From: Deltaproteobacteria bacterium
GTDB taxonomy: Bacteria > Desulfobacterota > GWC2-55-46 > UBA9637
Assembly (NCBI GenBank): GCA_016214995.1
Contig: JACRML010000059.1
Span: forward strand, 23,010-87,009
DNA: 64,000 bases
Reading direction: 5' to 3'
Shown piece after piece: positions 3,817 through 63,549 of this stretch. The translations under genes were made by a program, and so were the position numbers. The notes under the pieces are model-generated. The model did no database searches. It saw only the letters and a list, made by a program, of their open reading frames with translations, and was not told the DNA's origin. Each line of letters begins with the position of its first letter. Positions within the stretch are counted from its first letter, which is position 1.

Positions 3817-3894
3817 CAATGAATTAGGGGCAGGGGGAAATTAGGGATAGATACCATTAAAAGGTCCCATCAGGGCAAGTGGGTCAGGTCTATG

Positions 3895-4035
3895 CAGGCT
3901 GTTGAAAAAGACACCAACAGCCTTGATTACACCGATTAGAAAAAACGATTACACAGATATTTCAAGGAGTTTTAATCTGTGTAATCTGATTCTTTATCTG
4001 TGTAATCAGAGATTGTTGAGTTTTTCAACAAGCTC
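3895..4035 (+). mobile_element. MITE-like element with four GATTACACAGAT boxes and TTGAAAAA-containing terminal inverted repeats, copy 1
   Basis: Ends are CAGGCTGTTGAAAAAG ... GAGTTTTTCAACAAGCTC. Internally there are two direct and two inverted copies of GATTACAC(A/C)GAT. It has no coding capacity. Confidence 0.8.
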
Positions 4036-4301
4036 TATTTTCTTGACATCGTCTCAGTATATATAAGCAGACCGAGTCTTGAAAAGATATTCAGCAAGAA
4101 CATCTATGGGGACGATAAGAGAAACAAGATGATAAGAAGAAAAAAAGGTATCAGATTTGTTTTCCAGATATTTTTGAATGGTATTCAAAATCTGTTGAAA
4201 TCTGTGTGTTGAGCGGTGTCCAAATACTTTTTCCAGAAAAAAGACCTTGCTACTTACTACTGTTAGTGCTACCATTAAAACTATCATAGGAGGTATCACT
4301 A

Positions 4302-4583
4302 ATGGTTAAAATTCCGAATATCGTACCAATCACCGATCTTCGCCAAGATGCAACAGCCATTGTAAAGCGTGTGGCCAAGCTGCGGGAACCGCTTATTATC
4401 ACACAAAGGGGGCGCGCTGCCGCTGTGATGGTCAGCATAGAGGAGTATGAACATTCCCAGCATGAACTCGAACTTTTGAGGCTTCTTGCTCAAGGGGAAA
4501 AAGAAATAGAAGCAGGCAAGGGCTACGACCTTGACGTAGTTCTCTCGGAAGCCGATAAGTTGTTAAGAGATCTGCAAAGGTGA
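4302..4583 (+). CDS. Type II antitoxin, Phd/YefM family
   Basis: VPITDLRQDATAIVKRV...EPLIITQRGRAAAVMVSIEEYE is typical of Phd/YefM. GGAGG lies upstream. There is a 4-nt GTGA overlap with the downstream toxin ORF. Confidence 0.85.
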   Translation: MVKIPNIVPITDLRQDATAIVKRVAKLREPLIITQRGRAAAVMVSIEEYEHSQHELELLRLLAQGEKEIEAGKGYDLDVVLSEADKLLRDLQR

Positions 4584-4882
4584 AAATCCGTTTTACTCCT
4601 TCAGCTCGCACTCAGTTTCTTGCCGCACTCGCATACATTTATCGCGAGAACCCAACGGCAGCCGCGGCCTTTCGGCACAAGTCAGAAAAATCATTGTCGA
4701 GACTCCAAAAATTCTCACAATCCGGCAGGACGTTGCCGGAATTTCCTGCTCTTCCATTTCGAGAAGTTATAGTTGCTTCATATCGTTTTTTCTACCACGT
4801 AAAAGGGAAAATCGTTTGGATTGTGGCTGTATGGCATGGCGCTCAACTCTCGGAAGAGCCAACTGAAACCGAAAGCACCTAA
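4580..4882 (+). CDS. Type II toxin, RelE/ParE family
   Basis: 100-aa ORF translationally coupled to the antitoxin. The C-terminal YRFFYHVKGKIVWIVAVWHGAQ resembles the ParE/RelE fold signature. Confidence 0.8.
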   Translation: MKIRFTPSARTQFLAALAYIYRENPTAAAAFRHKSEKSLSRLQKFSQSGRTLPEFPALPFREVIVASYRFFYHVKGKIVWIVAVWHGAQLSEEPTETEST

Positions 4883-9391: not shown

Positions 9392-9544
9392 AAAACCTCC
9401 TCGTGTATTTTTGTATTCTAAGAATAACTGAAAAACAAACCAAGTCAATAAAAAAAGATAAGCCGCTGTAGTTGTTGACAATTCTTGTTTTAGGGTATAT
9501 TATTCTGCCTGATTAGTTTACACTGGAAAATGCTGGTTCACTAA

Positions 9545-9748
9545 GAGATTGTTGAAAAAATCAATAATCTCTGATTACACAGATAAAGAATTAGATTACA
9601 CAGATGACAGCGTTGCTGTCATTCTGAGGGTGAAGCCCGAAGAACCTCAAAGAACGAGATTCCTCGCTTCGCTCGGAATGACATTTCTGTGTAATCGTTT
9701 TTCCTAATCTGTGTAATTAAGGCTGTTGGTGGCTTTTTCAACAGCCTG
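9545..9748 (-). mobile_element. GATTACACAGAT MITE, copy 2, carrying a nested palindromic insert
   Basis: Collinear with copy 3 except for about 79 extra nt between the second and third boxes. Confidence 0.8.
9606..9684. repeat. Nested palindromic element (GTCATTCTGAG ... CTCGGAATGAC ends)
   Basis: It interrupts MITE copy 2 and has inverted termini. Related, more degenerate sequences lie at about 17082-17160, and a different palindrome of the same style lies at 2790-2830. Confidence 0.65.
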
Positions 9749-9817
9749 CTAAAATTACCTTGCCGTTGCCGTAAGAAGGATTATATAGGCAGAAATTATA
9801 AACGGAGGTTTAAATTT

Positions 9818-24247: not shown

Positions 24248-24360
24248 CAAATCTCAAATATCAAAACGCAAAACTATAAATTCAAAAAACAAAACTATAG
24301 AAGATTTTAGTTTTGCAGTTTTAAATTTAAGTTTTGAGCTTTGCGTTTTGAGTTTTGCAT
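24248..24360. repeat. Heptamer-periodic inverted array between porA and porB
   Basis: CAAATCT CAAATAT CAAAACG CAAAACT ATAAATT CAAAAAA CAAAACT, followed by ATTTTAG TTTTGCA GTTTTAA ATTTAAG TTTTGAG CTTTGCG TTTTGAG TTTTGCA. Confidence 0.8.
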
Positions 24361-29400: not shown

Positions 29401-29523
29401 GGTTACTATTGATAGCTAGGTATCCTTGCGGCACATAGAAGATGTTGCTACCGTTGCTTCCTTCCGGACCTGGCGGGGTTTGCAAACTTTCTATTGCGCA
29501 AGACCCAGCTATCAATACTAACC
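29401..29523 (-). ncRNA. ffs: Signal recognition particle RNA (small, 4.5S-type)
   Basis: On the minus strand a long helix closed by GGTTAGTATTGATAGCTGGG / CCTAGCTATCAATAGTAACC encloses the universal domain IV sequence CCAGGTCCGGAAGGAAGCAACGGTAG. It lies just upstream of dnaX, as in many bacteria. Confidence 0.85.
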
Positions 29524-29627: not shown

Positions 29628-29720
29628 TGGCGGAGAGAGAGGGATTTGAACCCTCGGTACACCTTTTGGATGCACACACGATTTCCAGTCGTGCTCCTTC
29701 AACCGCTCGGACATCTCTCC
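29628..29720 (-). tRNA. tRNA-Ser (anticodon GGA)
   Basis: 93-nt cloverleaf folded by hand: acceptor GGAGAGA/TCTCTCC, anticodon stem CACGA/TCGTG with loop CTGGAAA, a long variable arm, T-loop GTTCAAATC, and an encoded CCA. Confidence 0.9.
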
Positions 29721-29797: not shown

Positions 29798-29887
29798 TGG
29801 CGGAGAGAGAGGGATTTGAACCCCCGGTAGGGTTGCCCCTACAGTTGATTTCGAGTCAACCGCCTTCAGCCTCTCGGCCATCTCTCC
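29798..29887 (-). tRNA. tRNA-Ser (anticodon CGA)
   Basis: 90-nt cloverleaf: same acceptor and T arm as the neighbouring tRNA, anticodon stem GTTGA/TCAAC with loop CTCGAAA, variable-arm hairpin GTAGGG/CCCTAC, and an encoded CCA. Confidence 0.9.
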
Positions 29888-32190: not shown

Positions 32191-32331
32191 GAGCTTGTTG
32201 AAAAACTCAACAATCTCTGATTACACAGATAAAAAATATAGATTACACAGATTTAAACTATTGAATTATCTGTGTAATCGTTTTTATAAATCTGTGTAAT
32301 CAGGGCTGCTGGGGTCTTTTTCAACAGCCTG
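32191..32331 (-). mobile_element. GATTACACAGAT MITE, copy 3, inserted in the terminal hairpin of mosaic copy B
   Basis: It is the reverse complement of copy 1 over its whole length. It abuts GATTTTTGGGGAAACC, which is the right half of the mosaic terminal hairpin. Confidence 0.8.
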
Positions 32332-32563
32332 ATTTTTGGGGAAACCTGCAAGTTGGCTGCCAGACAACACACCCCTAAATACCCTCTCGAGAGGGGACTA
32401 AAGGGGTGTGTTATTTGCTACGAGCCGTATATCACCAATACGGTGAGAAGAAAAAATGTGCCGATAACGAAGTATGGCAGGCAAATCGGCTGGCTACACT
32501 TGCTGTGAAGCAATTGCAAGTGGAAGATGTAAAATAGCGAGGTTTTTAATCGCTATTTTACGG
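32331..32563 (-). repeat. Mosaic multi-hairpin element, copy B (nearly complete; terminal hairpin interrupted by a MITE)
   Basis: Collinear with copy D except for small indels. Its end CCGTAA provides the last codon and the stop codon of the PPIase gene. Confidence 0.85.
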
Positions 32564-41756: not shown

Positions 41757-41788
41757 GCCCAAAAAATGCAACTGTATTTTTGGGTTAA
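41757..41788. repeat. TTAAC-ended hairpin module, solo copy overlapping the leuB stop codon
   Basis: CCCAAAAAATGCAACTGTATTTTTGGGTTAA. The leuB TAA stop (41785-41787) lies inside the GGGTTAA end. Confidence 0.7.
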
Positions 41789-42877: not shown

Positions 42878-43080
42878 ATAGTCAACGATAAAAATAAGTA
42901 GATGCTACAATAAAATTCCTAATTTCTAAATCCTAATTTCTAATAACAAATGAAACTTCAAGGCTTGATTTTTTAATTTTATTAGAAATTAGAAATTAGA
43001 ACTTAGGAATTCTTCTAATGTTTCATTAGAAACATGTCCCCGAAGGCCTTCATCGGGGATTAGACATTAGGATTTAGGAT
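42878..43080 (+). repeat. Conserved 37-nt box (ATAGTCAACGATAAAAATAAGTAGATGCTACAATAAA) plus long CTAATTTCTAA-type heptamer hairpin, copy 1
   Basis: The box recurs, reverse-complemented on the plus strand, at 59757-59793 and 62055-62091, each time next to the same kind of hairpin. Confidence 0.75.
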
Positions 43081-44853: not shown

Positions 44854-44924
44854 TGCAATTTACGATTTACGATTTACGAATTGCGATTTGCGAATTAAAA
44901 AAATCGAAAATCGACAATCGAAAA
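44854..44924. repeat. Heptamer-periodic inverted array between leuC and the methyltransferase gene
   Basis: ATTTACG ATTTACG ATTTACG AATTGCG ATTTGCG ... AAAATCG AAAATCG ACAATCG AAAATCA. Confidence 0.8.
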
Positions 44925-46199
44925 TCAAAAATGTTTCTTAATCACTTCATCCGGATGCGCTATCCTGCCTTTGACTGCTGTTGCTGCGGCAACTGCCGGG
45001 TTTGCGAGATAGACCTCGCTCTTGGGGTGTCCCATCCTGCCCACGAAATTTCTGTTGGTGGTTGCCAAAGCCCGCTCGCCTTCCGCAAGAATTCCCATGT
45101 GTCCGCCGAGGCACGGGCCGCAGGTGGGAGGGCTGATGATCGCGCCTGCCTTGAGATAAATATCAAACAACCCTTCATCCATAGCTTGTTTGTAAATGAG
45201 CGGCGTTGCCGGAATGATAATCATCCGTGTGGAGGATGCGATCTTTTTGCCCTTCATTATCTTTGCGGCAACTCTTAAATCCTCCATCCTGCCGTTGGTG
45301 CATGAGCCTACGACCACCTGATCAATCGGCACATTCCCCACATCGGAGATATTTTTTGTGTTCTCCGGCAGATGGGGGAAGGCAACCTGCGGCTCAATGT
45401 CGGCACAGTCGTATTCCCGCACATCGCAGTAAATTGCGTTCTCATCGCTTGAGTAAAATTTATACGGCCTCTCAGCCCTTTTATCCACATATGTCTTGGT
45501 GGTTTTATCCGGGGCAATGATGCCGTTTTTTGCGCCTGCCTCAATTGCCATATTGCACATGGAAAGGCGGCTGTCCATGGAGAGCCGTTCAATCGCAGAG
45601 CCGCAGAACTCCATCGCCCGGTAGAGCGCGCCGTCAACGCCGATCTCGCCGATTAGATAAAGTATCAGGTCTTTCCCTTCAACCCATTTGTTGAACTTGC
45701 CTTTGAAGATGAATTTCATGGATTCGGGAACCTTGAACCATGCCTCGCCCGTAACCATAGCTGCGGCCAAATCCGTTGATCCCACGCCCGTTGCGAATGC
45801 GCCCAGCGCGCCGTAGGTGCAGGTGTGGCTGTCCGCGCCGATAACCAGATCGCCCGGCACAACGATCCCTTTCTCAGGAAGGAGCGCATGTTCCACGCCC
45901 ACATCGCCGCCGTCGAAGTAGTGCTTGAGTTTCTGTTCATGCGCAAAATTCCGAAGCACTTTACACTGCTCAGCGGATTTTATATCCTTGTTCGGCGTAA
46001 AGTGGTCAGGCACCAGCACGACCTTGTTTTTATTGAACACCTTTTTTGCGCCGCTGGCCTTGAACTCCTTGATGGCAATGGGCGCGGTGATATCGTTGCC
46101 CAGCGCAATATCCACCTTTGCATTGATAAGCTGCCCGGGCTTCACCTCTTTCAGCCCGGCGTGTTTTGCAAGTATTTTTTCGGTAATGGTCATCGGCAT
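44925..46199 (-). CDS. leuC: 3-isopropylmalate dehydratase large subunit
   Basis: [15 protein letters not shown] and Fe-S ligand regions ([21 protein letters not shown]). ATG at 46199 follows GGGAGG. Confidence 0.95.
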
Positions 46200-47890: not shown

Positions 47891-48785
47891 TCACCTTTCC
47901 TTATGATGCAACTCCTGTTGTGCTACTGCTTTCTTTGCCCTTCTATCCAACAGGGTAGTTATTGGTCCTGATACTGCATAACCCAGTGTCAGCACAAAAA
48001 ACATCACCTGTGGTTCTGCGGCTATAACAATAAGCAAAAATATCAATCCTACCAACAGCCTGAATGGCATACGCTGTGCAGGATTTAATTCCTTGAAGCT
48101 GTAATATTTGACATTGCTCACCATGAGGAATGCAAGGGCATAAACCATAATCAATATGGTTATATGTTTGGTGATATCCTCATAGCCGAAATGATAAAAT
48201 ATCAACACGGTTGCGGCTACAAGAGAAGCAGCAGCAGGAATCGGCAGGCCGTTGAACCTTTTGCTCTCAATGGTATTTATCTGTATATTGAACCTGGCAA
48301 GTCTTAATGCCCCGCACACCACATACAAAAATGCAGCCAGCCAGCCATACCGGTCAAAAGGCCGCAGCGCCCATGTAAATATTAATATGCCAGGTGCAAG
48401 TCCAAATGCTATCAGATCTGACAACGAATCATACTCAATACCAAACTTGCTTGTTGACTTTGTAAGTCTCGCAATTCTCCCGTCTAACCCATCCAATACA
48501 GCAGATATAAGTATAGCAATAGCTGCCTTGTCAAATTCCCAACGAATCATACTCAACGCCAAACTTGCTTGTTGACTTTGTAAGTCTCGCAATTCTTCCG
48601 TCTAACCCATCCAATACAGCAGATATAAGTATAGCAATAGCTGCCTTGTCAAATTCCCCATCCAGAGATGCGATGATGGAATAAAACCCTCCGAAAAGAC
48701 TAGCTGATGTAATGAGGTTAGGAAGAAGGTATATCCCTCTTTTTATGCCGCCTTTTTGCCTTGTCTTTAAATTTTCATCTATCAT
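47891..48785 (-). pseudogene. pssA: CDP-diacylglycerol--serine O-phosphatidyltransferase, reading frame split by a 118-bp tandem duplication
   Basis: ORFs 48531..48785 and 47891..48592 both encode EFDKAAIAILISAVLDGLDGRIARLTKSTSKFG(V/I)EYDSL. The first ORF stops 2 codons after the duplication junction. The CDP-alcohol phosphatidyltransferase motif DG..R...G...D...D is complete only in the second ORF. Confidence 0.75.
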
Positions 48786-51322: not shown

Positions 51323-53044
51323 TCATACCAGCAGCATCTTATTCAACGGCTGGCCTGCAGGAACCATTGGATAGACATCCTCTTCCCTGTCAATATTAAA
51401 ATCCATAAATACAGGTTTGTTCTTGACAGCCAGGGCCTCTTTTATAACACCGTCTACATCTTCTGGCTTTGTTGCCCTTAACCCAACCGCACCATATGCC
51501 TCTGCTACCTTTACAAAATCAGGGGCAACATCCATGCATGTATATGAGTATCTCTTTTCATAGAAAAACTCCTGCCATTGTCTGACCATACCGAGGAATT
51601 TATTATTAAGTATTGCAATCTTTACAGGCAGTTTATACTGAACTGCAGTTGCCAACTCCTGTATATTCATCTGAATACTGCCATCACCTGCAATATCAAT
51701 GACTATTTTGTCAGGAAATGCAAACTGCGCTCCAATGGCGGCAGGAAAACCAAAACCCATAGTTCCAAGGCCGCCTGATGTCAAAAATGTCCTTGGTTTA
51801 TCAAATTTATAAAACTGCGCTGCCCACATCTGGTTCTGGCCGACTTCAGTGGTGATAATGGCCTTGCCTTTTGTCAGATCATAAATCCTTTCTATGACAT
51901 ATTGCGGTTTTATTTTTTTCTCGTCCAACTTGTAAGAAAGTTTATGCGTCTCTCCCCACTGTTTAATCTGTTCGTGCCATTCGGCAAGAGCATCCTTCTG
52001 CGCCTTCTCGTTCCCACGCTCTGCGTGGGAACGACCCTTTATCTCATCTAGTGCCTTGAGCATGTCTTTGAGAACTGATTTCACATCTCCGACGATTGGC
52101 ACATCAACCCTGACGTTTTTGCTGATAGATGTGGGGTCAATGTCAACATGGATTACCTTTGCATAAGGCGCAAACTCATCTATTTTACCCGTAACTCTGT
52201 CATCAAATCTGGCGCCGATTGCTATGAGGCAGTCTGTGTTTGTTACGGCCATATTGGCGCAGTATGTGCCGTGCATGCCGAGCATTCCGAGAAAAAGCGG
52301 ATGCGTGCCGGGGAAACCGCCGAGTCCCATGAGCGTGTTTGTAACAGGGATATTCAACTTTTCTGCAAATACCCTAAGTTCATCAGATGCATCTGATAAA
52401 ACAACTCCGCCGCCTGTATATAACACAGGTCTTTTTGCTTTGATGATTAATTCAACTGCTTTTTTTATCTGGCCAATATGTCCCTTATATGTTGGCTGAT
52501 AACTTTTCAACTCAACCTTTTCAGGATACTTAAACTCAGCAGATGCGCTTAAAACATCCTTTGGAATATCCACCAGCACAGGGCCAGGCCTTCCTGTTGT
52601 AGCTATGTAAAATGCCTCTTTTATAATCCTGGTTAAATCTTTTATGTCCTTGACCAGATAATTATGTTTAGTACACGGCCTTGTAATGCCGACAATATCT
52701 GCCTCCTGAAAGGCATCATTGCCAATAAGGGCAGTTGGCACCTGGCCTGTAAAAACAACAATGGGAATAGAATCCATATACGCTGTCGCAATCCCTGTAA
52801 CAGTGTTTGTTGCACCGGGACCGGAGGTAACCAGAACAACGCCTGGCTTTCCGCTTGCCCTTGCATAGCCATCTGCCATATGCACAGCACCCTGTTCATG
52901 CCGCACCAGAATATGTTTTAAGGCAGTTACGCCATAAAGCGCATCATATATAGGTAAAACAGCGCCGCCAGGAAAACCGAATATGGTATCCACGCCTTCC
53001 TTTAATAAGCTTTCAAGAAATATCTGTGCACCGTTCTTTTTCAT
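51323..53044 (-). CDS. ilvB: Acetolactate synthase large subunit
   Basis: [28 protein letters not shown] and the TPP motif [14 protein letters not shown]. The 110 upstream codons in the ORF track translate a repeat element. Confidence 0.95.
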
Positions 53045-54795
53045 ATAAATTTTACCTGAGGGTACCCAAAAATAGACTTTGATTTTTGGGGAAACCTGCA
53101 AGTTGCCTGCCAGACGAGGCAGCGGACAATTTTTACGACGAGCCGTATGTTCACCGATACGGTGAGGAGTAAAAATTGTCCGATAACGAAGTATGGCAGG
53201 CAAATCGCAGGTTTGTAAAATAGCGTCCAGTTTGACTTTCTTTTTTCTAACTCTTTGCCCTCTACCTTCAACTCTATCTTTCTGTTCGGAATATCTATCT
53301 CTATCCCATCTCCATCCTGAACAAATGCTATTGGCCCGCCCTCCATTGCCTCGGGCGAGATATGACCTATGCACGGTCCCCGTGTGCCGCCGGAGAATCT
53401 TCCATCCGTAATAAGCGCAACCTTATCTGCCATGCCCATGCCGGTGATAGTCGCTGTGGGCGCAAGCATCTCCCTCATGCCGGGTCCTCCTTTAGGCCCT
53501 TCATATCTTACAACAATAACATCACCGTCTTTTATCTTTCCATTGAGTATTGCCTGCATTGCAGCCTCTTCTGAATCAAAACACCTTGCCTTACCTATAA
53601 AATATTTCGCCTTTTCATTCACAGCAGTCTGCTTTACAACACAGCCGTTAGGAGCGAGATTTCCCTTTAAAACCGCAATGCCCCCCTCTTTATAATATGC
53701 ATTTTCTATTGTCCTTACTACATCACTATCATTAACCTTGGCCTGTTCAGCAATCTCTTTTATATTTTTTTTTGAGACCGTGATATTGTCTTTTAAAAGA
53801 CTTTTCAATCTGTTCATAACAGCAGGAATCCCACCGGCATATTCCAAGTCTTCCATGAAATGATCGCCTGCAGGTTCTAATTTGACAATATTCGGAGTTT
53901 CCCTGCTTATCGTGTCAAATATTTCAAGGGGTAGTTTAATGCCTACCTCATGCGCAATCGCTGGTATATGGAGTGCTGTATTTGTTGAGCCGCCAAGCGC
54001 CATGTCAATCCTTATTGCGTTTTCAAACGCACCCCTTATCATAACCTTTCCGGGTGTTAAATCCTCTTTGACCATCTCAACTATGCGCACACCTGAATCA
54101 AATGCAATTCTCCTCTTGTCGGCAGAGCCTTCAAGACCGGTTGCGCAGCCGACGAGAGACATGCCAAGCGCTTCAGTAACACACGCCATAGTATTTGCAG
54201 TATACATTCCCTGACACGAACCGCCGCCGGGGCATGCACAGAATTCCAGGTCTGAAAGCTCCTGCTCGGTTATCTCCTTATTCTTGAACCTGCCAATTGC
54301 CTCGTATGTATCGCGGACAAACGAGCGGCGCTTCATCTTATACATGCCTGTATGCATTGGCCCTGCTGTAACAACAATTGAAGGCACATCAAGTCTTGCA
54401 GCAGCCATGAGCATTCCCGGCGTTATCTTATCGCAGTTTGTAAGAAGCACCAACCCATCCAAAGCATGAGCTGCTGCCACAGACTCAATCATGTCAGCAA
54501 TGAGCTCTCTGCTCGGCAGAGAGTAATGCATGCCTGTATGCCCCATGGCAATGCCATCGCATATGGCAGGCACGCCGAAAAGGAATGAATGACCGCCGCC
54601 TGTATGCACGCCCTTCTCAATAAATCTCTCAAGAGTCCTCATGCCGATATGCCCGGGCACAAGGTCATTGAAGGATGTGGCAACGCCTATAAACGGCCTG
54701 TCCATCTCCTCTTTTGTCAGACCCGTTGCATAGAGCAGCGCCCTGTGTGGAACCCTTTCAAGTCCTTTTTTTACCCTGTCGCTACGCATAGTCAC
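53041..54795 (-). CDS. ilvD: Dihydroxy-acid dehydratase with a non-native C-terminal tail encoded by a repeat element
   Basis: IlvD motifs run throughout ([36 protein letters not shown]). After residue W523 the 61-codon tail [16 protein letters not shown]... is a translation of mosaic-element copy C. The conserved IlvD C-terminus is absent. Confidence 0.85.
53065..53225 (-). repeat. Mosaic multi-hairpin element, copy C (internal module replaced, distal modules deleted)
   Basis: Shares the terminal hairpin, the linker, the CCGTAT/ATACGG hairpin and the GTTATCGG region with B and D. It also has nested perfect stems TTGCCTGCCA/TGGCAGGCAA and CGGACAATTTTTAC/GTAAAAATTGTCCG. Confidence 0.85.
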
Positions 54796-55120: not shown

Positions 55121-55204
55121 GATTGCACAGATTTTATACGACGATTAGACAGATTTAAAAAATATTCTTTCTCTGTGTAATCTGCCTTTGTAATCTGTGT
55201 AATC
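55121..55204. repeat. Degenerate fragment of the GATTACACAGAT MITE (boxes only, no terminal repeats)
   Basis: GATTGCACAGAT, GATTAGACAGAT, then CTCTGTGTAATC and ATCTGTGTAATC, in the same 2+2 arrangement. Confidence 0.6.
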
Positions 55205-55339
55205 ATATTACTAGTTTAACAGATATTAGTATAACATCTTTTGCTTGTCAACCCGAGAAAATACAGGTTAAGATTGAGGTAAAGGTTTAGAATTTCCTCA
55301 ACCTTAACCTCAACCTTAACCTTGACCTTAACCTTGACC

Positions 55340-56074
55340 TTAGCCTTTCCTCATCTTAAGTTCTGCCTCTGAGGGTCTCAGATATTTAAGCTCAACAGTT
55401 TGAGGGCTGTCACTATCCCCATTTTTAAATCTCTTCCATGCCAGCAAGCCGATGTTTGATGCCTTTATTGTCCACAGATACTCGGGGGCAATAATAGCCT
55501 TATCCTTTAGCATAGCTTTAATAGGATTTCCATATACCTTTAGACCATCACCAAGAAATATTGTCGACTTTGTTATTCTCTCAATAAGTGCTTCAGGGCT
55601 TAAGGCAGCATCGGGCATAAGACAAGTTGCAAGCTGCAGGCCGCAGGTTTCAAGTCTATCATTATCTTGCATCTTGAAACTTGCATCTTGAAACTTGTAG
55701 ATACCCGCATAAACCTCTTTTTTCCGCGCATCCAACAAAGGGCATATCTGTTTGTCAGAATAAGGCAGATTCATTGCCAGCGCCTCTAAAGTTGAGACGC
55801 AAACCACCTTCTTGTTTAAACTCCATGCAAGCCCCTTGATAGTTGAAAGTCCAATCCGCAGCCCTGTAAAAGAACCCGGTCCTGCAGCTAGTGCAAAACC
55901 ATCAACATCTTCTATGCTTGCACCAATACCATGCAGAAGGGTTTTTATTGAAGGCAGCAGTCTCTCTGCATGGGTTTCTTGAATACAGGTTGTTAATTCA
56001 GCAATGAGCCGGCCATCTTCAAGCAGTGCAATGCTCCCTGACGCAGTGGCAGTATCTATAGCAAGTATTTTCAT
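55340..56074 (-). CDS. tsaB: tRNA threonylcarbamoyladenosine biosynthesis protein TsaB
   Basis: MKILAIDTATASGSIALLEDG and GPGSFTGLRIG are present. Confidence 0.9.
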   Translation of the reverse strand: MKILAIDTATASGSIALLEDGRLIAELTTCIQETHAERLLPSIKTLLHGIGASIEDVDGFALAAGPGSFTGLRIGLSTIKGLAWSLNKKVVCVSTLEALAMNLPYSDKQICPLLDARKKEVYAGIYKFQDASFKMQDNDRLETCGLQLATCLMPDAALSPEALIERITKSTIFLGDGLKVYGNPIKAMLKDKAIIAPEYLWTIKASNIGLLAWKRFKNGDSDSPQTVELKYLRPSEAELKMRKG

Positions 56075-56161: not shown

Positions 56162-57559
56162 TTAATTTATCAATCTACGTAAAAACCCAATTATATCTAG
56201 CCGCATCACATCGTTGTATGTCACAAATAGCATCAATAAAACCAGAAGACCAATTCCTATATTCTGGGTCATGGTCATAATCCTCTCGCTCAATGGCTTG
56301 CCCCGGAGCGCCTCTATGCCAAAGAATATAAGAAAACCACCATCCAGAACAGGGATTGGTAATAGGTTCAATATGCCCAACTGCAGGCTTAAGAATGCCA
56401 TGAGAGAAAGAAGCGCTGTCAGGCCTGACTCAGCAGCCTGTCCTGCCACCTGAGCAATCATTAAAGGGCCGCCAAGTGTTTTAATGGATATCTCTCCGAC
56501 AAAAAGCTTTTTTATAATTACAAATGTCATTATGGTTAATTCGCCCATCTTTTTTACCCCCTCAACAACTGCTCCAGCAGGGCCATAACGTCTTGTAACC
56601 GTATCCTGAAAAGGTGATACACCTATTGCATATCCCTTTATGTTTTCATTCCACTGCGACTTAATGCGGAGTTCAAATATCTCATTCCCTCTTTTTACCT
56701 GAAAAAGTCTTTCCTCTGCTGCTTCTTTCTTTTCAGTTTCTGGTTTCTGGCCTCTTGCTTCTTGTTTCTGACTTCCTGCTTCTTGCTTCTGACTCTGGAT
56801 TGCCTGTTGGAGTTCTATCCAGTGGTCTATCTTAACCCCGTCAACAGAAAGGATTGTATCGCCAATCTTTAGCCCGGCTTTTTCAGCAGGCAATCCTTGA
56901 ATAAGCCCGCCCACAGTAGGACTCATGGGAGGGAAAAATCCGCTAACCCCTCCACCGGTTTGAGAAGAGGCTTCGGGGGTAAATGTAATATCTTGAACCC
57001 TACCATTATTTTTAACTATGAGTTTGAGCGCTTTATTCGGGTTGGAGATAATAGCGGTATTAAGCTCCTCCCAGTTTTTAATATACGTGCCGTCTATTGA
57101 TTCTATTACATCTCCCTTTTTTAAACCTGCCTTATCGGCATTTTCACCCATCACAACATAGCCGACTATAGGCTCTTTATCCAAATATGCAGGAACTTGG
57201 ATTCCTATGAGGTATATAAGCGGCAGAAGCGAAAATGCCAGAGTAAGGTTCATTATCGGCCCTGCTGCAACTATTGCCGCCTTTTTTGAAAGAGGTTTCT
57301 TGGCAAATGATCTTTCATTGTCAGTTGGGCTTACCTCTTCACCGGTTGATTCACCAACCATCTTCACATAGCCACCGAGCGGCAGAAGGGATATTAGATA
57401 TTCTGTTTCACCCCTTTTTACGCCGATTATCTTAGGCCCGAAACCGAGGGAAAATTTTAACACTCCGACCCCTGAAAGCTTTGCAATAATAAAGTGGCCA
57501 AGTTCATGTATAAAAACTAAAATACCGAGAACTACTAAAAATGATATAACCGTTGTCAT
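56162..57559 (-). CDS. rseP: RIP (site-2) zinc metalloprotease RseP
   Basis: HELGHF, two PDZ-like regions (GLKKGDVI, GLKIGDTI) and the C-terminal NLLPIPVLDGG motif. Confidence 0.9.
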   Translation of the reverse strand: MTTVISFLVVLGILVFIHELGHFIIAKLSGVGVLKFSLGFGPKIIGVKRGETEYLISLLPLGGYVKMVGESTGEEVSPTDNERSFAKKPLSKKAAIVAAGPIMNLTLAFSLLPLIYLIGIQVPAYLDKEPIVGYVVMGENADKAGLKKGDVIESIDGTYIKNWEELNTAIISNPNKALKLIVKNNGRVQDITFTPEASSQTGGGVSGFFPPMSPTVGGLIQGLPAEKAGLKIGDTILSVDGVKIDHWIELQQAIQSQKQEAGSQKQEARGQKPETEKKEAAEERLFQVKRGNEIFELRIKSQWNENIKGYAIGVSPFQDTVTRRYGPAGAVVEGVKKMGELTIMTFVIIKKLFVGEISIKTLGGPLMIAQVAGQAAESGLTALLSLMAFLSLQLGILNLLPIPVLDGGFLIFFGIEALRGKPLSERIMTMTQNIGIGLLVLLMLFVTYNDVMRLDIIGFLRRLIN

Positions 57560-57606: not shown

Positions 57607-58827
57607 TTACTGCCTATTACTTATTTTTTTTACTATCTCCTTTGCCAATTCTCTGGCACATTTATCAGCTTCCAATATTTCTTCCAATTGTGATGTGCTG
57701 GGCGCTGAGCGCTGAATTTTAGATTTTTTATTCTGGCTTCTGGCTTCCGGCTTCTGGCTTCTGTATTTTTCCATCGTGTCTTCTACAATCTCCGTTATAT
57801 CTGTAAATTTAATTTTCTTCTCTAAAAACGCCTCCACTGCAACTTCGTCAGCGGCATTCAGCACTGCCGGCATAACACCGCCTGTCTTTATTGCCTCATA
57901 TGCAAGCCTAAGCGCCGGGAATCTGTCTTTGTCAGGCTCCATAAATGTAAGTTTATCCATTTTACAAAGGTCAAGCGAACCAATACCGCAGTCAATTCTC
58001 TCATCAGGATAGGTAAGGGCGTAAGATATAGGCCCTTTCATATCCGTTGGCCCAAGTTGGGCCACAATAGAACCGTCAATATATTCAACCATAGAATGAA
58101 CAACGCTCTGAGGATGGATGTGGACGCCTATCTTTTCAGGCAGCATATCAAAAAGCCACATAGCCTCAATTACCTCCAAACCTTTATTCATAAGCGTTGC
58201 TGAATCTATGGTAACCTTTTTACCCATCTTCCACTTTGGATGATTCAATGCCTGTTCATGGGTGATGTCTGACAACTTTTCAATAGGCAGGTTTAAAAAA
58301 GGGCCGCCGGATGCAGTTAGTATCAGTCTTTTTATGTCTCCCTTTTTATGACCCACAAGAGACTGAAATATGGCGCTGTGTTCGCTGTCAATGGGAAGAA
58401 GGTTAATCTTATTTTTTTTGACCTCCTTCATCACTAATCCACCTGCCATAACAAGAACCTCTTTATTAGCAAGGGCAATATCTTTTTTTGCTTTTATAGC
58501 AGCCAGGGTCGGTGCAAGGCCACTTGCCCCAACCAGTGCAGAGACCACCAAATCCACACCGCAGGTAGCTGTTTCGAGCAAACCATCGTCTCCATAATAA
58601 GATTTAGGTTTATATGATAAATCTAGTTTTAATTCATTGATGTCTTTTGCATCTGTAAGCGATATAACCTTTGGCTTGAATTCCTTTATCTGCCTTTTGA
58701 ACAGGTCTTTATTCCTACCTGCTGCAAGGGCTATTATCTTAAATCTGTCTGGATGCCTTCTGACAATCTCAAGGGTGCTCTGGCCTATAGAACCTGTAGA
58801 GCCAAGAATTGCAAGTTTTTTTGCCAT
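57607..58827 (-). CDS. dxr: 1-deoxy-D-xylulose 5-phosphate reductoisomerase
   Basis: LAILGSTGSIGQSTL, LANKE, PIDSEHSAIFQ and NKGLEVIEA motifs. Confidence 0.95.
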   Translation of the reverse strand: MAKKLAILGSTGSIGQSTLEIVRRHPDRFKIIALAAGRNKDLFKRQIKEFKPKVISLTDAKDINELKLDLSYKPKSYYGDDGLLETATCGVDLVVSALVGASGLAPTLAAIKAKKDIALANKEVLVMAGGLVMKEVKKNKINLLPIDSEHSAIFQSLVGHKKGDIKRLILTASGGPFLNLPIEKLSDITHEQALNHPKWKMGKKVTIDSATLMNKGLEVIEAMWLFDMLPEKIGVHIHPQSVVHSMVEYIDGSIVAQLGPTDMKGPISYALTYPDERIDCGIGSLDLCKMDKLTFMEPDKDRFPALRLAYEAIKTGGVMPAVLNAADEVAVEAFLEKKIKFTDITEIVEDTMEKYRSQKPEARSQNKKSKIQRSAPSTSQLEEILEADKCARELAKEIVKKISNRQ

Positions 58828-60616: not shown

Positions 60617-61054
60617 TCATTTTTCAATTTCCTCCGTTCTTAAAGCAATCCCTCTGGCCATCTTATCCAACATACCATTTATAAACGCCGGGGAATCCTC
60701 TGTCCCGTATATCTTTCCAAGTTCTATCGCTTCATCAATAACGACCTTAAAAGGAATATCATTGCAATAAAGCAGTTCAAAAGATGCAAGCCTTAAAATA
60801 CTCTTGTCTATAACAGTGATTCTATCTATAGCCCAGTTGTCTGCATTTGCCTCTATCAACCTGTCTATTTCATCCCTGTGTTTCCAAACTCCGTTCACCA
60901 ATTTTAAAATAAAATCTTTTGCATCTTCTTTAAGTTTTCTTGTTTCTGCCTGTGCGGTTATAATGTCATCTATATCCCCCTCAGCGATATCTAACTGATA
61001 AAGGGTTTCTAATGCAATCATCCTTGTCTTTCGCCTGCTCAACCCCATTGTCAC
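60617..61054 (-). CDS. nusB: Transcription antitermination factor NusB
   Basis: RRKTRMIALETLYQ... and NGMLDK-type motifs, located downstream of ribH as in many bacteria. Confidence 0.9.
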   Translation of the reverse strand: MTMGLSRRKTRMIALETLYQLDIAEGDIDDIITAQAETRKLKEDAKDFILKLVNGVWKHRDEIDRLIEANADNWAIDRITVIDKSILRLASFELLYCNDIPFKVVIDEAIELGKIYGTEDSPAFINGMLDKMARGIALRTEEIEK

Positions 61055-61115
61055 ATCGCTCCGTTGTAAAATGCAAGTTGCAGATTGTAAATTTTAAAAT
61101 TTTGCATTTTACAAT

Positions 61116-61385
61116 CCAAAAACAGGCATTGATTTTTGGGGAAACCTGCAAGTTGGCCGCCAGACAACACACCCCTAAATCCCCTCTCTAGAGGGGACTA
61201 AAGGGGTGTGTTGTTTGCGACGAGCCGTATGTTCACCGATACGGTGAGGAACAAAAATTGGCCGATAACGAAGTCGGGGCACCCAAGCAAAGCTTGGGTC
61301 GGGCAAATCGGCTGGCTCCACTTGCTGCGAAGCAATTGCAAGTGGAAGATGTAAAATAGCGAGGTTTTTAATCGCTATTTTACGG
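61116..61385 (-). repeat. Mosaic multi-hairpin element, copy D (longest, about 270 nt), between ribH and nusB
   Basis: Seven hairpin or linker modules were read directly from the sequence; see the finding for this copy. Confidence 0.85.
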
Positions 61386-61417
61386 TTACAATCTTCATGT
61401 TGCAATTGACGGAAAAC

Positions 61418-61894
61418 TTACTTCCTCTTTCCCAGTTCCTTAAACAGGTTTGCCATTTCTATTGCATTCAAAGCGGCATCCCTGCCTTTATTCCCTGATT
61501 TTGTGCCCGCCCTTTCTATCGCCTGCTCAAGGTTATCAGAGGTTATGATGCCAAATGCTATTGGAAGACCCTCATCCATGGACAATCTTGCAACACCCTT
61601 TGCCACTTCAGATGCAATATAGTCAAAGTGCGGTGTTGAACCCCGGATTATTGCCCCAAGGCATATAACTGCATCGTACTTCCCGTTCTTTATCATGGCC
61701 TGTGCCGCAACAGGCAATTCAAAAGAACCAGGCGCTTTTACCACATCTATATCAGACTCAGATGCACCACTTCGCAAGAGTGTATCAACTGCACCTTCTA
61801 AAAGTCTGTTGCCTATGAAGTCGTTAAACCTGCTTACCACCACTCCAAACTTGAGCCCTTTTGCCGACAAACCACCTTCAATTATTTTTGGCAT
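61418..61894 (-). CDS. ribH: 6,7-dimethyl-8-ribityllumazine synthase
   Basis: [34 protein letters not shown] and FGIIT motifs. Confidence 0.95.
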
Positions 61895-61944: not shown

Positions 61945-62092
61945 AGAAATCCTAAATCCTAATGTCTAATTTCTAATGAATGTCCAATGACTAAATTTCC
62001 AATGTTTTTTGACATTTGACATTTTATTAGAAATTAGGATTTAGAAATTAGAAATTTATTGTAGTATCTACTTATTTTTGTCGTTGACTATA
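61945..62092 (-). repeat. 37-nt box plus heptamer hairpin, copy 3 (between ribBA and ribH)
   Basis: Near-identical to copy 2. The box starts 3 nt after the ribBA stop. Confidence 0.8.
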
Positions 62093-63321: not shown

Positions 63322-63435
63322 CTCTATATCCCCTATATGGTCAAAACCGCATCTCCCCAAATCTATTACTATTAAACTTATGAAACTTTAGTATAGTAGC
63401 ATACAAATTGGTTAAACTCAAATAAAGCAGGGCTT

Positions 63436-63549
63436 CCGTAAAATAGCGATTAAAAACCTCGCTATTTTACATCTTCCACTTGCAATTGCTTAGCAGCAAG
63501 TGGAGCCAGCCGATTTGCCCGCCCCGACTTTGCTATCGGCCAATTTTTG
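63436..63549 (+). repeat. Mosaic multi-hairpin element, copy E (first three modules only, inverted relative to the others)
   Basis: The plus strand here matches the minus strand of copies B and D: CCGTAAAATAGCGATTAAAAACCTCGCTATTTTACATCTTCCACTTGCAATTGCTT.GCAGCAAGTGGAGCCAGCCGATTTGCC... Confidence 0.85.

Follow-up and report, generated by a model that had tools for sequence, protein, structure and literature searches.

The window, by which we mean the whole 64-kb stretch of DNA that was analysed, contains five copies (A to E) of a hairpin-rich intergenic repeat. A preliminary description of this DNA had reported five copies, and all of them are recovered by a repeat search, by blastn with copy D and by an nhmmer profile, the start of copy B now being set at 32330. 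Every hairpin that had been listed for copy D is also seen when positions 60900–61600 are read on the minus strand.

Copy D (61116–61385, minus strand) lies between ribH and nusB. It is a full-length MITE of 270 bp that matches positions 1–183 of the nhmmer profile (E = 1.5e-40). Its alignment to the consensus resolves it into a core of ~185 bp and three internal hairpin additions: module 2 (CCACTTGC/GCAAGTGG), inserted at core position 36, a 21-nt stretch (ACCCAAGCTTTGCTTGGGTGC), inserted at core position 53, and the ACAACACACCCC...GGGGTGTGTTGT module (module 5), which stands in place of core positions ~120–134. The element is bordered by the target-site duplication ATTGTAA, on the left at 61386–61392 of the minus strand (with the 6-bp core TTGTAA at 61386–61391, by direct reading) and on the right at 61109–61115 of the same strand (by direct reading and by comparison with the related locus L094). 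The palindromic hexamer TTGCAA, which matches TTGACA at 4/6 positions, is found at 61400–61405, exactly 8 bp from the 6-bp duplication. The predicted fold of copy D has a free energy of -119 kcal/mol versus -75 +/- 5.5 in dinucleotide shuffles (z = -8.1), and the opposite strand folds with equal stability (z = -8.2).

Copy B (32330–32563, minus; profile positions 1–170, E = 4.9e-41) follows a gene coding a SurA/PPIase-like protein. It belongs to the expanded subfamily of copy D, with module 2 and the module 5 hairpin and without the 21-nt insert. The last ~14 nt of its right tip are absent and a hairpin of another repeat family stands there. This second intergenic family consists of direct repeats of ATCTGTGTAATC beside a hairpin CAGGCTGTTGAAAAAG...CAGCCCTG and occurs at 3894–4036, 9544–9749, 32191–32331 and 55161–55205, one of these being the replacement of the copy B tip; a hairpin related to it follows pyrD in L094. 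Repeats of the second family also flank a ParE-family toxin gene (4580–4882) and the small upstream ORF (4302–4583) whose end it overlaps, a gene couple that is probably a type II toxin-antitoxin pair.

Copy C (53065–53225, minus) gives the best profile match in the window (positions 23–184, E = 3.1e-57). It occupies the 3' end of ilvD up to the start of ilvB and is a canonical core with no insertions, from which the first 22 nt (the left tip) are absent. It had been taken for a copy in which one module was swapped, but the nested 10-bp stems that had been ascribed to the swap are the normal inverted arms of the element. The ilvD frame reads straight through copy C (53041–53225) and ends in an ATGA overlap with the start of ilvB (53042–53044). 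Similarity to IlvD proteins stops at ...KRKSNW, and the last ~23 positions of the Pfam carboxyl-terminal domain (~30 residues in PDB 6nte) are replaced by ~60 residues encoded by the element. Either this is a real replacement, in which the left tip of the MITE and the end of the gene were deleted, or it is an assembly join at the repeat. The ilvD read-through is the sole ORF that crosses a copy, and no reading frame is conserved among copies.

The two remaining copies are fragments. Copy A (2003–2097, minus; E = 2.2e-12) is a right-hand fragment made of core positions 131–184 and the module 5 hairpin, and is found between divergent genes, a minus-strand ORF without Pfam match and a plus-strand ZIP transporter gene. 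Four copies had been described as lying in the same orientation inside operons; A to D are indeed all on the minus strand, but the surroundings of copy A are not those of an operon. Copy E (63436–63549, plus; E = 2.9e-13) is a left-hand fragment, core positions 1–80 with module 2, between a dihydroorotate dehydrogenase gene and ribBA. It is 98% identical to copy D over 90 nt and has the orientation opposite to that of the other four.

Pfam scans were run on 54 window ORFs; of the 56 non-overlapping ORFs with a length of 100 aa or more, 53 are among them. The annotated ORFs all correspond to ordinary cellular genes and five have no match; no transposase, TnpB/IscB, reverse transcriptase or Y1_Tnp was found among them, in agreement with the earlier statement that no associated protein gene is present in the window. 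The only matches at the Rfam gathering threshold in the window are an SRP RNA (29411–29510) and two tRNA genes (29631–29720 and 29801–29887), all on the minus strand.

Several other repeats are present. Tandem arrays with a 7-bp period (3–8 copies of units such as ATTTACG, ATTAGAA, TTCTTGC or TTTGAGT) fill a large share of the spacers, for instance at 24305–24357, 42981–43011, 44858–44932, 56745–56790, 57731–57763 and 62026–62056. They resemble the cyanobacterial heptamer repeats known as STRR. An array with a 6-bp unit (CCTTAA x 8.7) is present at 55296–55347. A 118-bp unit is found twice in tandem, with 97% identity, at 48422–48658, in the 5' end of the ORF for a CDP-alcohol phosphatidyltransferase (47891–48592); a recent duplication and an assembly artefact are the two possible origins.

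Architecture of the family and its mosaic variants

A scan of one genome per species with the exact 3' block CAACTTRCMRGTTTMCCCAAAAATCA yields at least 80 further loci. Those listed all come from ~10 groundwater metagenome-assembled genomes (MAGs) assigned to 'Deltaproteobacteria' or Thermodesulfobacteriota, and the genome of the window is not among these. Numerous sharp-ended copies, which the preliminary description had named as support, are thus present in related genomes. Note that the related sequences are all metagenome assemblies, in which repeats can cause misjoins.

Among the loci listed, 47 of the 72 copies with both ends recognisable are 183–185 bp long and have identical ends, the unit starting with CCGTAAAATAGCG and ending with CTATTTTTGGG; the tip motifs are CCGTAAAATAG on one side and CTATTTTTGGG on the other. 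Variants range from 95 to ~293 bp. The termini form imperfect inverted repeats (CCnnAAAATAG), with 9/13 ungapped matches between CCGTAAAATAGCG and the reverse complement of the right end, CCCAAAAATAGAC. Comparison of the consensus with its own reverse complement reveals symmetry over the whole length, the element being an imperfect palindrome with a hairpin at each tip. In the minimum-energy fold of the consensus the left tip hairpin pairs positions 3–14 with 24–35 and the right one 160–168 with 177–185. Between them a central imperfect stem joins 36–59 to 135–158 and 69–81 to 114–125 and has CCGTAT/ATACGG at its centre. Solo hairpins that resemble the tips were also detected. One like the right tip (CCCAAAAAATGCAACTGTATTTTTGGG) lies at 41758–41785 of the window, between the convergent genes secF and leuB, and another at 554–580 of L056; solo left-tip hairpins (H1) are found in L091, L093, L094 (8121–8157) and L022, with no clear duplications.

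Mean column identity is 94% among 39 distinct core copies. The identity of the core between species (~94%) is far above that of the host genes, which is 66–83% at the nucleotide level between the window genes and the syntenic stretches found. Insertion sites are rarely common to several genomes (70 of 73 are unique among the loci listed). High core identity together with unshared sites suggests recent independent activity, horizontal spread of a source element, or strong constraint on the copies that can transpose.

In the alignment of the 39 sequences 95.7% of cells pair. Five pairs vary on both sides (40–154, 41–153, 50–144, 80–115 and 81–114), all of them arm-to-arm, while the tip hairpins are invariant. 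The arms therefore co-evolve, as expected of inverted repeats that are both recognised by one transposase or that pair as single strands, and the covariation carries no specific evidence for an RNA. The compensatory changes previously put forward as support are thus real, but they are equally expected for the inverted repeats of a transposon.

Alignments bear out that each copy has a different subset of modules. The mosaic consists of small hairpins inserted into the core or replacing parts of it, as in copies D and B, and of truncations, as in copies A, C and E. When the longer copies are aligned to the core, the added hairpins are 12–45 nt long and occupy a few recurrent positions, mostly in hairpin loops. 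After position 35/36 the addition is module 2 or a 28-nt hairpin that has direct repeats of TTTAC on its two sides; at 44–47 it is a 15-nt hairpin; at 53/54 it is the 21-nt ACCCAAGC...GCTTGGGTGC or a TCCCCGA...TCGGGGA hairpin. Further on, a 34-nt piece flanked by GTCGGC is added at position 70, a G/C-rich two-tier hairpin at 94, and module 5 and others at 120–145. The copy of L014 has an inverted central segment, that of L052 is a 95-bp minimal form, and some copies have been invaded by other repeats.

The TCCCCGA...TCGGGGA hairpin, of ~25 nt and with the general form (G)TCCCCGA-N7-13-TCGGGGA(C), is REP-like. It was seen 20 times inside MITE copies, at three or more internal positions, and in loci L009, L012, L018, L021, L028, L040, L054, L062 and L080 among its sites; since it also occurs 14 times outside the MITE it is a separate family. 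Other nested hairpins have short direct repeats of their own, namely the 28-nt hairpin between two TTTAC (L081–L090 and L024) and the 34-nt one between two GTCGGC (L024/L014), and may likewise have been inserted by a staggered-cut mechanism.

Mobility and the search for a mover

Perfect flanking direct repeats of 5–7 bp, varied in sequence, border 50 of the 75 non-redundant full-length copies among the loci listed. In a control that combines the left flank of one copy with the right flank of another, such repeats appear at a rate of 0.36% (P about 1e-103). The duplicated target is usually 5–6 bp and occasionally 7 bp long.

A clean pair of filled and empty sites is available for one copy, copy D. 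An exact look-up of the NusB of the window gave no record, but four orthologous loci (L094–L097) were found through homologues of RibBA, the L094 protein being 96% identical. In L094 the orthologous ribH-nusB spacer has a single ATTGTAA (gaagATTGTAAaatg; in a longer reading, ...gaagATTGTAAaatgaaaaatttt...). The filled site of the window reads gaagATTGTAA-[270-bp element]-ATTGTAAaatg, with ATTGTAAaatgcaaaatttt on the right side. The spacer is missing altogether in two other relatives, whose ribH and nusB genes abut. A search with joined flanks detected no empty site among the first 80 loci. Two candidates were set aside: L011 as the empty site of copy D, whose uppS gene is preceded by tsf-pyrH-frr and not by ribH-nusB despite seeming synteny, and L094 as the exact empty site of copy E. 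At the latter, as at promoter-adjacent sites in general, divergence immediately ahead of the -35 box is too great for an exact empty site to be defined.

The flanks of the copies are AT-rich and intergenic (34% GC versus 42% overall). Across 66 copies with called neighbours the element is found between tandem genes in the sense (16) or antisense (27) orientation, between divergent genes (18) or between convergent genes (5). There is no orientation bias in this set, and the shared orientation of four window copies, to which a meaning had been attached, is a coincidence. The family is short (under 500 bp) and non-coding, and has terminal inverted repeats, target-site duplications and many dispersed copies in AT-rich intergenic DNA, which are the features that define MITEs in prokaryotes (reviewed in PMC10969869). 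Among the hypotheses raised for the repeat at the outset, that of a non-autonomous mobile element is borne out by its terminal inverted repeats and target-site duplications, by the empty site and by the sharp-ended copies of the relatives.

The mover would be a DDE-type transposase encoded elsewhere, its class being judged from the duplications alone. The CC ends and the 5–6-bp duplications led us to consider an IS1380-like or IS1634-like family, an assignment that is not claimed. Neither the 64-kb window nor ~660 kb of related loci yielded an autonomous element whose ends match. A search of the related loci for a master IS, as pairs of tips 0.7–3 kb apart with at most 2 mismatches per tip, gave none; candidate tip pairs in L023 and L071 enclose ordinary genes. 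A metagenome scan designed to detect the left hairpin where the bases after it are not those of the MITE revealed no transposase and gave only MITE variants (with the 28-nt hairpin after H1) and solo H1 hairpins, and two scans of viral contigs had no matches. The master copy beside a transposase, tnpB, iscB or reverse transcriptase gene that had been envisaged was accordingly seen neither in the window nor in the related loci or targeted scans.

Position relative to -35 boxes

For 73 copies among the loci listed, the 146 flanks were read with offsets counted away from the element. In 31 of them a hexamer that matches TTGACA at 5/6 positions or better begins at offset 14 or 15, over a background of ~1 per offset. 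The signal extends to whole promoter-like sites, defined by a -35 hexamer with at least 4/6 matches, a 16–18-bp spacer, a -10 hexamer with at least 3/6 matches and a sum of at least 8/12. Outward sites of this kind are found in 29 flanks at offset 14 and in 17 at offset 15, versus 2.0 per offset elsewhere (P = 2e-35). Promoters that read inward, used as the control, show no peak in the flanks. A promoter-like site is present on one side in 46 of 73 copies, which corresponds to 43–45 of 70 independent loci when flanks are clustered for shared ancestry. It is absent at offsets 13–15 in the other 27 copies, and about one third of copies have no recognisable hexamer at the expected place.

Flanks aligned on the hexamer display TTGACA, 17 bp and TAAnnT preceded by G, like an extended -10. 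An outward ORF starts within 250 nt in 77% of the promoter-type flanks versus 51% of the others. Copies with 5-bp duplications have the hexamer at offset 14, those with 6-bp ones at offset 15 (~31 of 35 informative cases fit). Since the offset tracks the length of the duplication, the gap between duplication and hexamer is a constant 8 bp. The hexamer is about as frequent next to copies with intact duplications (20/50) as next to those with decayed ones (11/25). A related hexamer is located 14 bp inward from each end of the element, as an invariant TTGATT on the right and as TT(A/G/T)AAA on the left, in an arrangement that mirrors that of the target. An inward promoter composed of the tip TAAAAT and the flanking -35 box was considered and discarded: the hexamers read outward and the inward control has no peak.

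Next to copy E in the window, a TTGAGT -35 hexamer (63416–63421) stands 14 bp downstream of the left tip (63436) and is separated by a 17-bp spacer from TACTAT (63393–63398). This promoter-like site (63393–63421, minus) reads toward ribBA and is kept in the four relatives (L094–L097), which have no element there. Similarly, the nrdR promoter has an element upstream in L097 and is present without it in L096. In these comparisons the ribBA and nrdR promoters pre-exist the insertion, which points to targeted insertion as the origin of the placement. Copy D also fits the spacing rule (TTGCAA, 8 bp, TTGTAA), although its ribH-nusB spacer belongs to an operon and shows no evident promoter.

Interpretation and comparison with known systems

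The five repeats are very probably copies of a promoter-seeking, non-coding MITE family; the element is not a new RNA. How it reaches its sites is a more delicate question, for which we lean toward a TTGACA hexamer that serves as a molecular ruler, for the transposase or for a docked host factor, and gives access to a 'safe haven' at about -50. The data show insertion by a staggered cut at [5–6-bp target]-N8-TTGACA. The hexamer points outward and is in most cases the -35 box of a complete, existing promoter. The transposase, or a host factor at the -35 box (sigma factor/RNA polymerase), would measure the cut site from the hexamer, one cut falling 8 bp upstream of it and the other 5–6 bp further on. 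A single DNA-binding domain might read both the element ends and the target, the hexamer acting as a pseudo-end; this possibility is drawn from the TTGA-type hexamer 14 bp inside both tips. The element would land at about -50 and leave promoter and gene intact. Sparing of both by insertion ~50 bp upstream of the start site would explain the high copy number in compact genomes.

The placement could alternatively be the work of selection, a reading that we consider rather unlikely. The MITE would insert nearly at random in AT-rich spacers, and the copies kept would be those whose A/T-rich tip is in phase with a -35 box, where they would be harmless or would behave as an UP-like or insulating element. 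In its favour, the tips have T5/A4 tracts whose position relative to the adjacent promoter would be about -52 to -56, and insertions at other places in short spacers would often do harm; the 27 copies without a promoter-like site at the expected offsets are also in keeping with this idea. Selection is, however, difficult to reconcile with a spike confined to two offsets, with no threshold or broad shoulder, which follows the duplication length base for base at a constant 8 bp. The equal hexamer frequency beside intact and decayed duplications speaks against it too, as does copy D, which keeps the spacing beside TTGCAA where no promoter is evident.

Two other explanations concern the nature of the element itself. 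A palindromic element of REP/REPIN type, built of inverted hairpin doublets and spread by a RAYT (an IS200/IS605-like tyrosine transposase), would account for the whole-length symmetry, the covarying arms, the terminal hairpin H1 found solo in L091, L093 and L094, and the dispersal of the separate TCCCCGA...TCGGGGA family in the same genomes. It is nevertheless highly improbable: RAYT/IS200-type insertion makes no target duplication, whereas duplications of varied sequence border two thirds of the copies and the empty site is clean; moreover the element has no GTAG-type 5' motif and the window ORFs include no Y1 transposase. We give slightly less credit still to a structured non-coding RNA, either a guide or scaffold RNA of a TnpB/IscB-type nuclease encoded elsewhere or an RNA stability/processing module, both of which the preliminary description had proposed. 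Very stable predicted folds, the five covarying pairs and the location of copies D and C in operons, where they would be transcribed, are compatible with it. So are the extra hairpins in the loops of the core, a placement that fits a structured RNA or a single-stranded DNA intermediate. Yet both strands fold equally well and orientation is unbiased, and most copies lie upstream of promoters and so would not be transcribed from them. In Rfam searches the element has no family match at the gathering threshold, and when the threshold was relaxed only miRNA-like hairpin noise, far below threshold, appeared for copy D and for one canonical copy; the window has no nuclease or reverse transcriptase gene. 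Guide RNAs of TnpB/IscB arise from IS200/IS605-type ends, with no target duplication and on one strand only, a pattern at odds with duplications as the rule and with unbiased orientation. A processing or stability module, which may exist as a side effect, is likewise made less likely by the lack of strand bias and by the location of the copies ahead of promoters, and the duplications and the empty site denote mobility at the DNA level.

The repeat family itself is ordinary and accounts for the hairpin-rich spacers of this genome. Annotators of these MAGs should not call such spacers RNAs and should distrust contig joins located in them. If the fixed distance to the -35 box holds true, it would be a form of target selection new to bacteria, and the element would become a ready promoter marker in uncultured genomes. 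It would also define a route by which mobile DNA reaches high copy number in compact genomes with genes unbroken. Were the enzyme found, it would offer a system in which to study distance measurement by a transposase relative to a 6-bp signal. To our knowledge, such ruler targeting is undescribed for bacterial transposons. A literature search found no description of ruler-like placement upstream of -35 boxes, and the review PMC10969869 reports a fixed insertion point relative to TTGACA for no prokaryotic MITE.

The closest parallels among known elements are the following. The MITE Chunjie of Geobacter uraniireducens and QMITE1/2 of Coxiella burnetii are non-coding elements of ~180–235 bp with terminal inverted repeats and direct repeats (PMC10969869). 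They have tens of copies, mostly intergenic and some operon-internal, with size variants and partial copies that lack ends, and very stable stem-loops are predicted for their transcripts (PMC10969869). In features, and not in any sequence relationship seen, the present family shares with them the length class, terminal repeats, intergenic and operon-internal copies and variants, and differs by its hairpin tips, whole-length symmetry, recurrent internal hairpins and TTGACA-fixed insertion point. Similarity extends to Correia elements of Neisseria, ERIC and the pneumococcal BOX, RUP and SPRITE, which are short intergenic repeats of palindromic or modular build and have inverted termini (in part after PMC10969869). 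Correia elements have internal deletion and insertion variants, BOX varies in its number of modules, and such repeats nest and can affect nearby promoters. Correia and RUP duplicate TA, in contrast to the 5–6 bp found here, and Correia brings promoter pieces along whereas this family settles at a fixed interval from a -35 box already present. BOX repeats its modules, while here different small hairpins join one core. REP/BIME mosaics and REPINs offer hairpin mosaics, inverted doublets, covarying arms and solo hairpins in intergenic DNA, but they depend on a Y1 (HUH) transposase and make no target duplication, unlike the duplications and the staggered-cut empty site observed here. In yeasts, Ty3 and Ty1 (at Pol III genes) and Tf1 (at Pol II promoters) insert at fixed places near start sites, sparing genes and reaching high copy number. 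The resemblance to them is one of behaviour only, a defined place upstream of a promoter: they are eukaryotic LTR retrotransposons led by contacts with transcription factors, whereas the family described here is the remnant of a bacterial DNA transposon.
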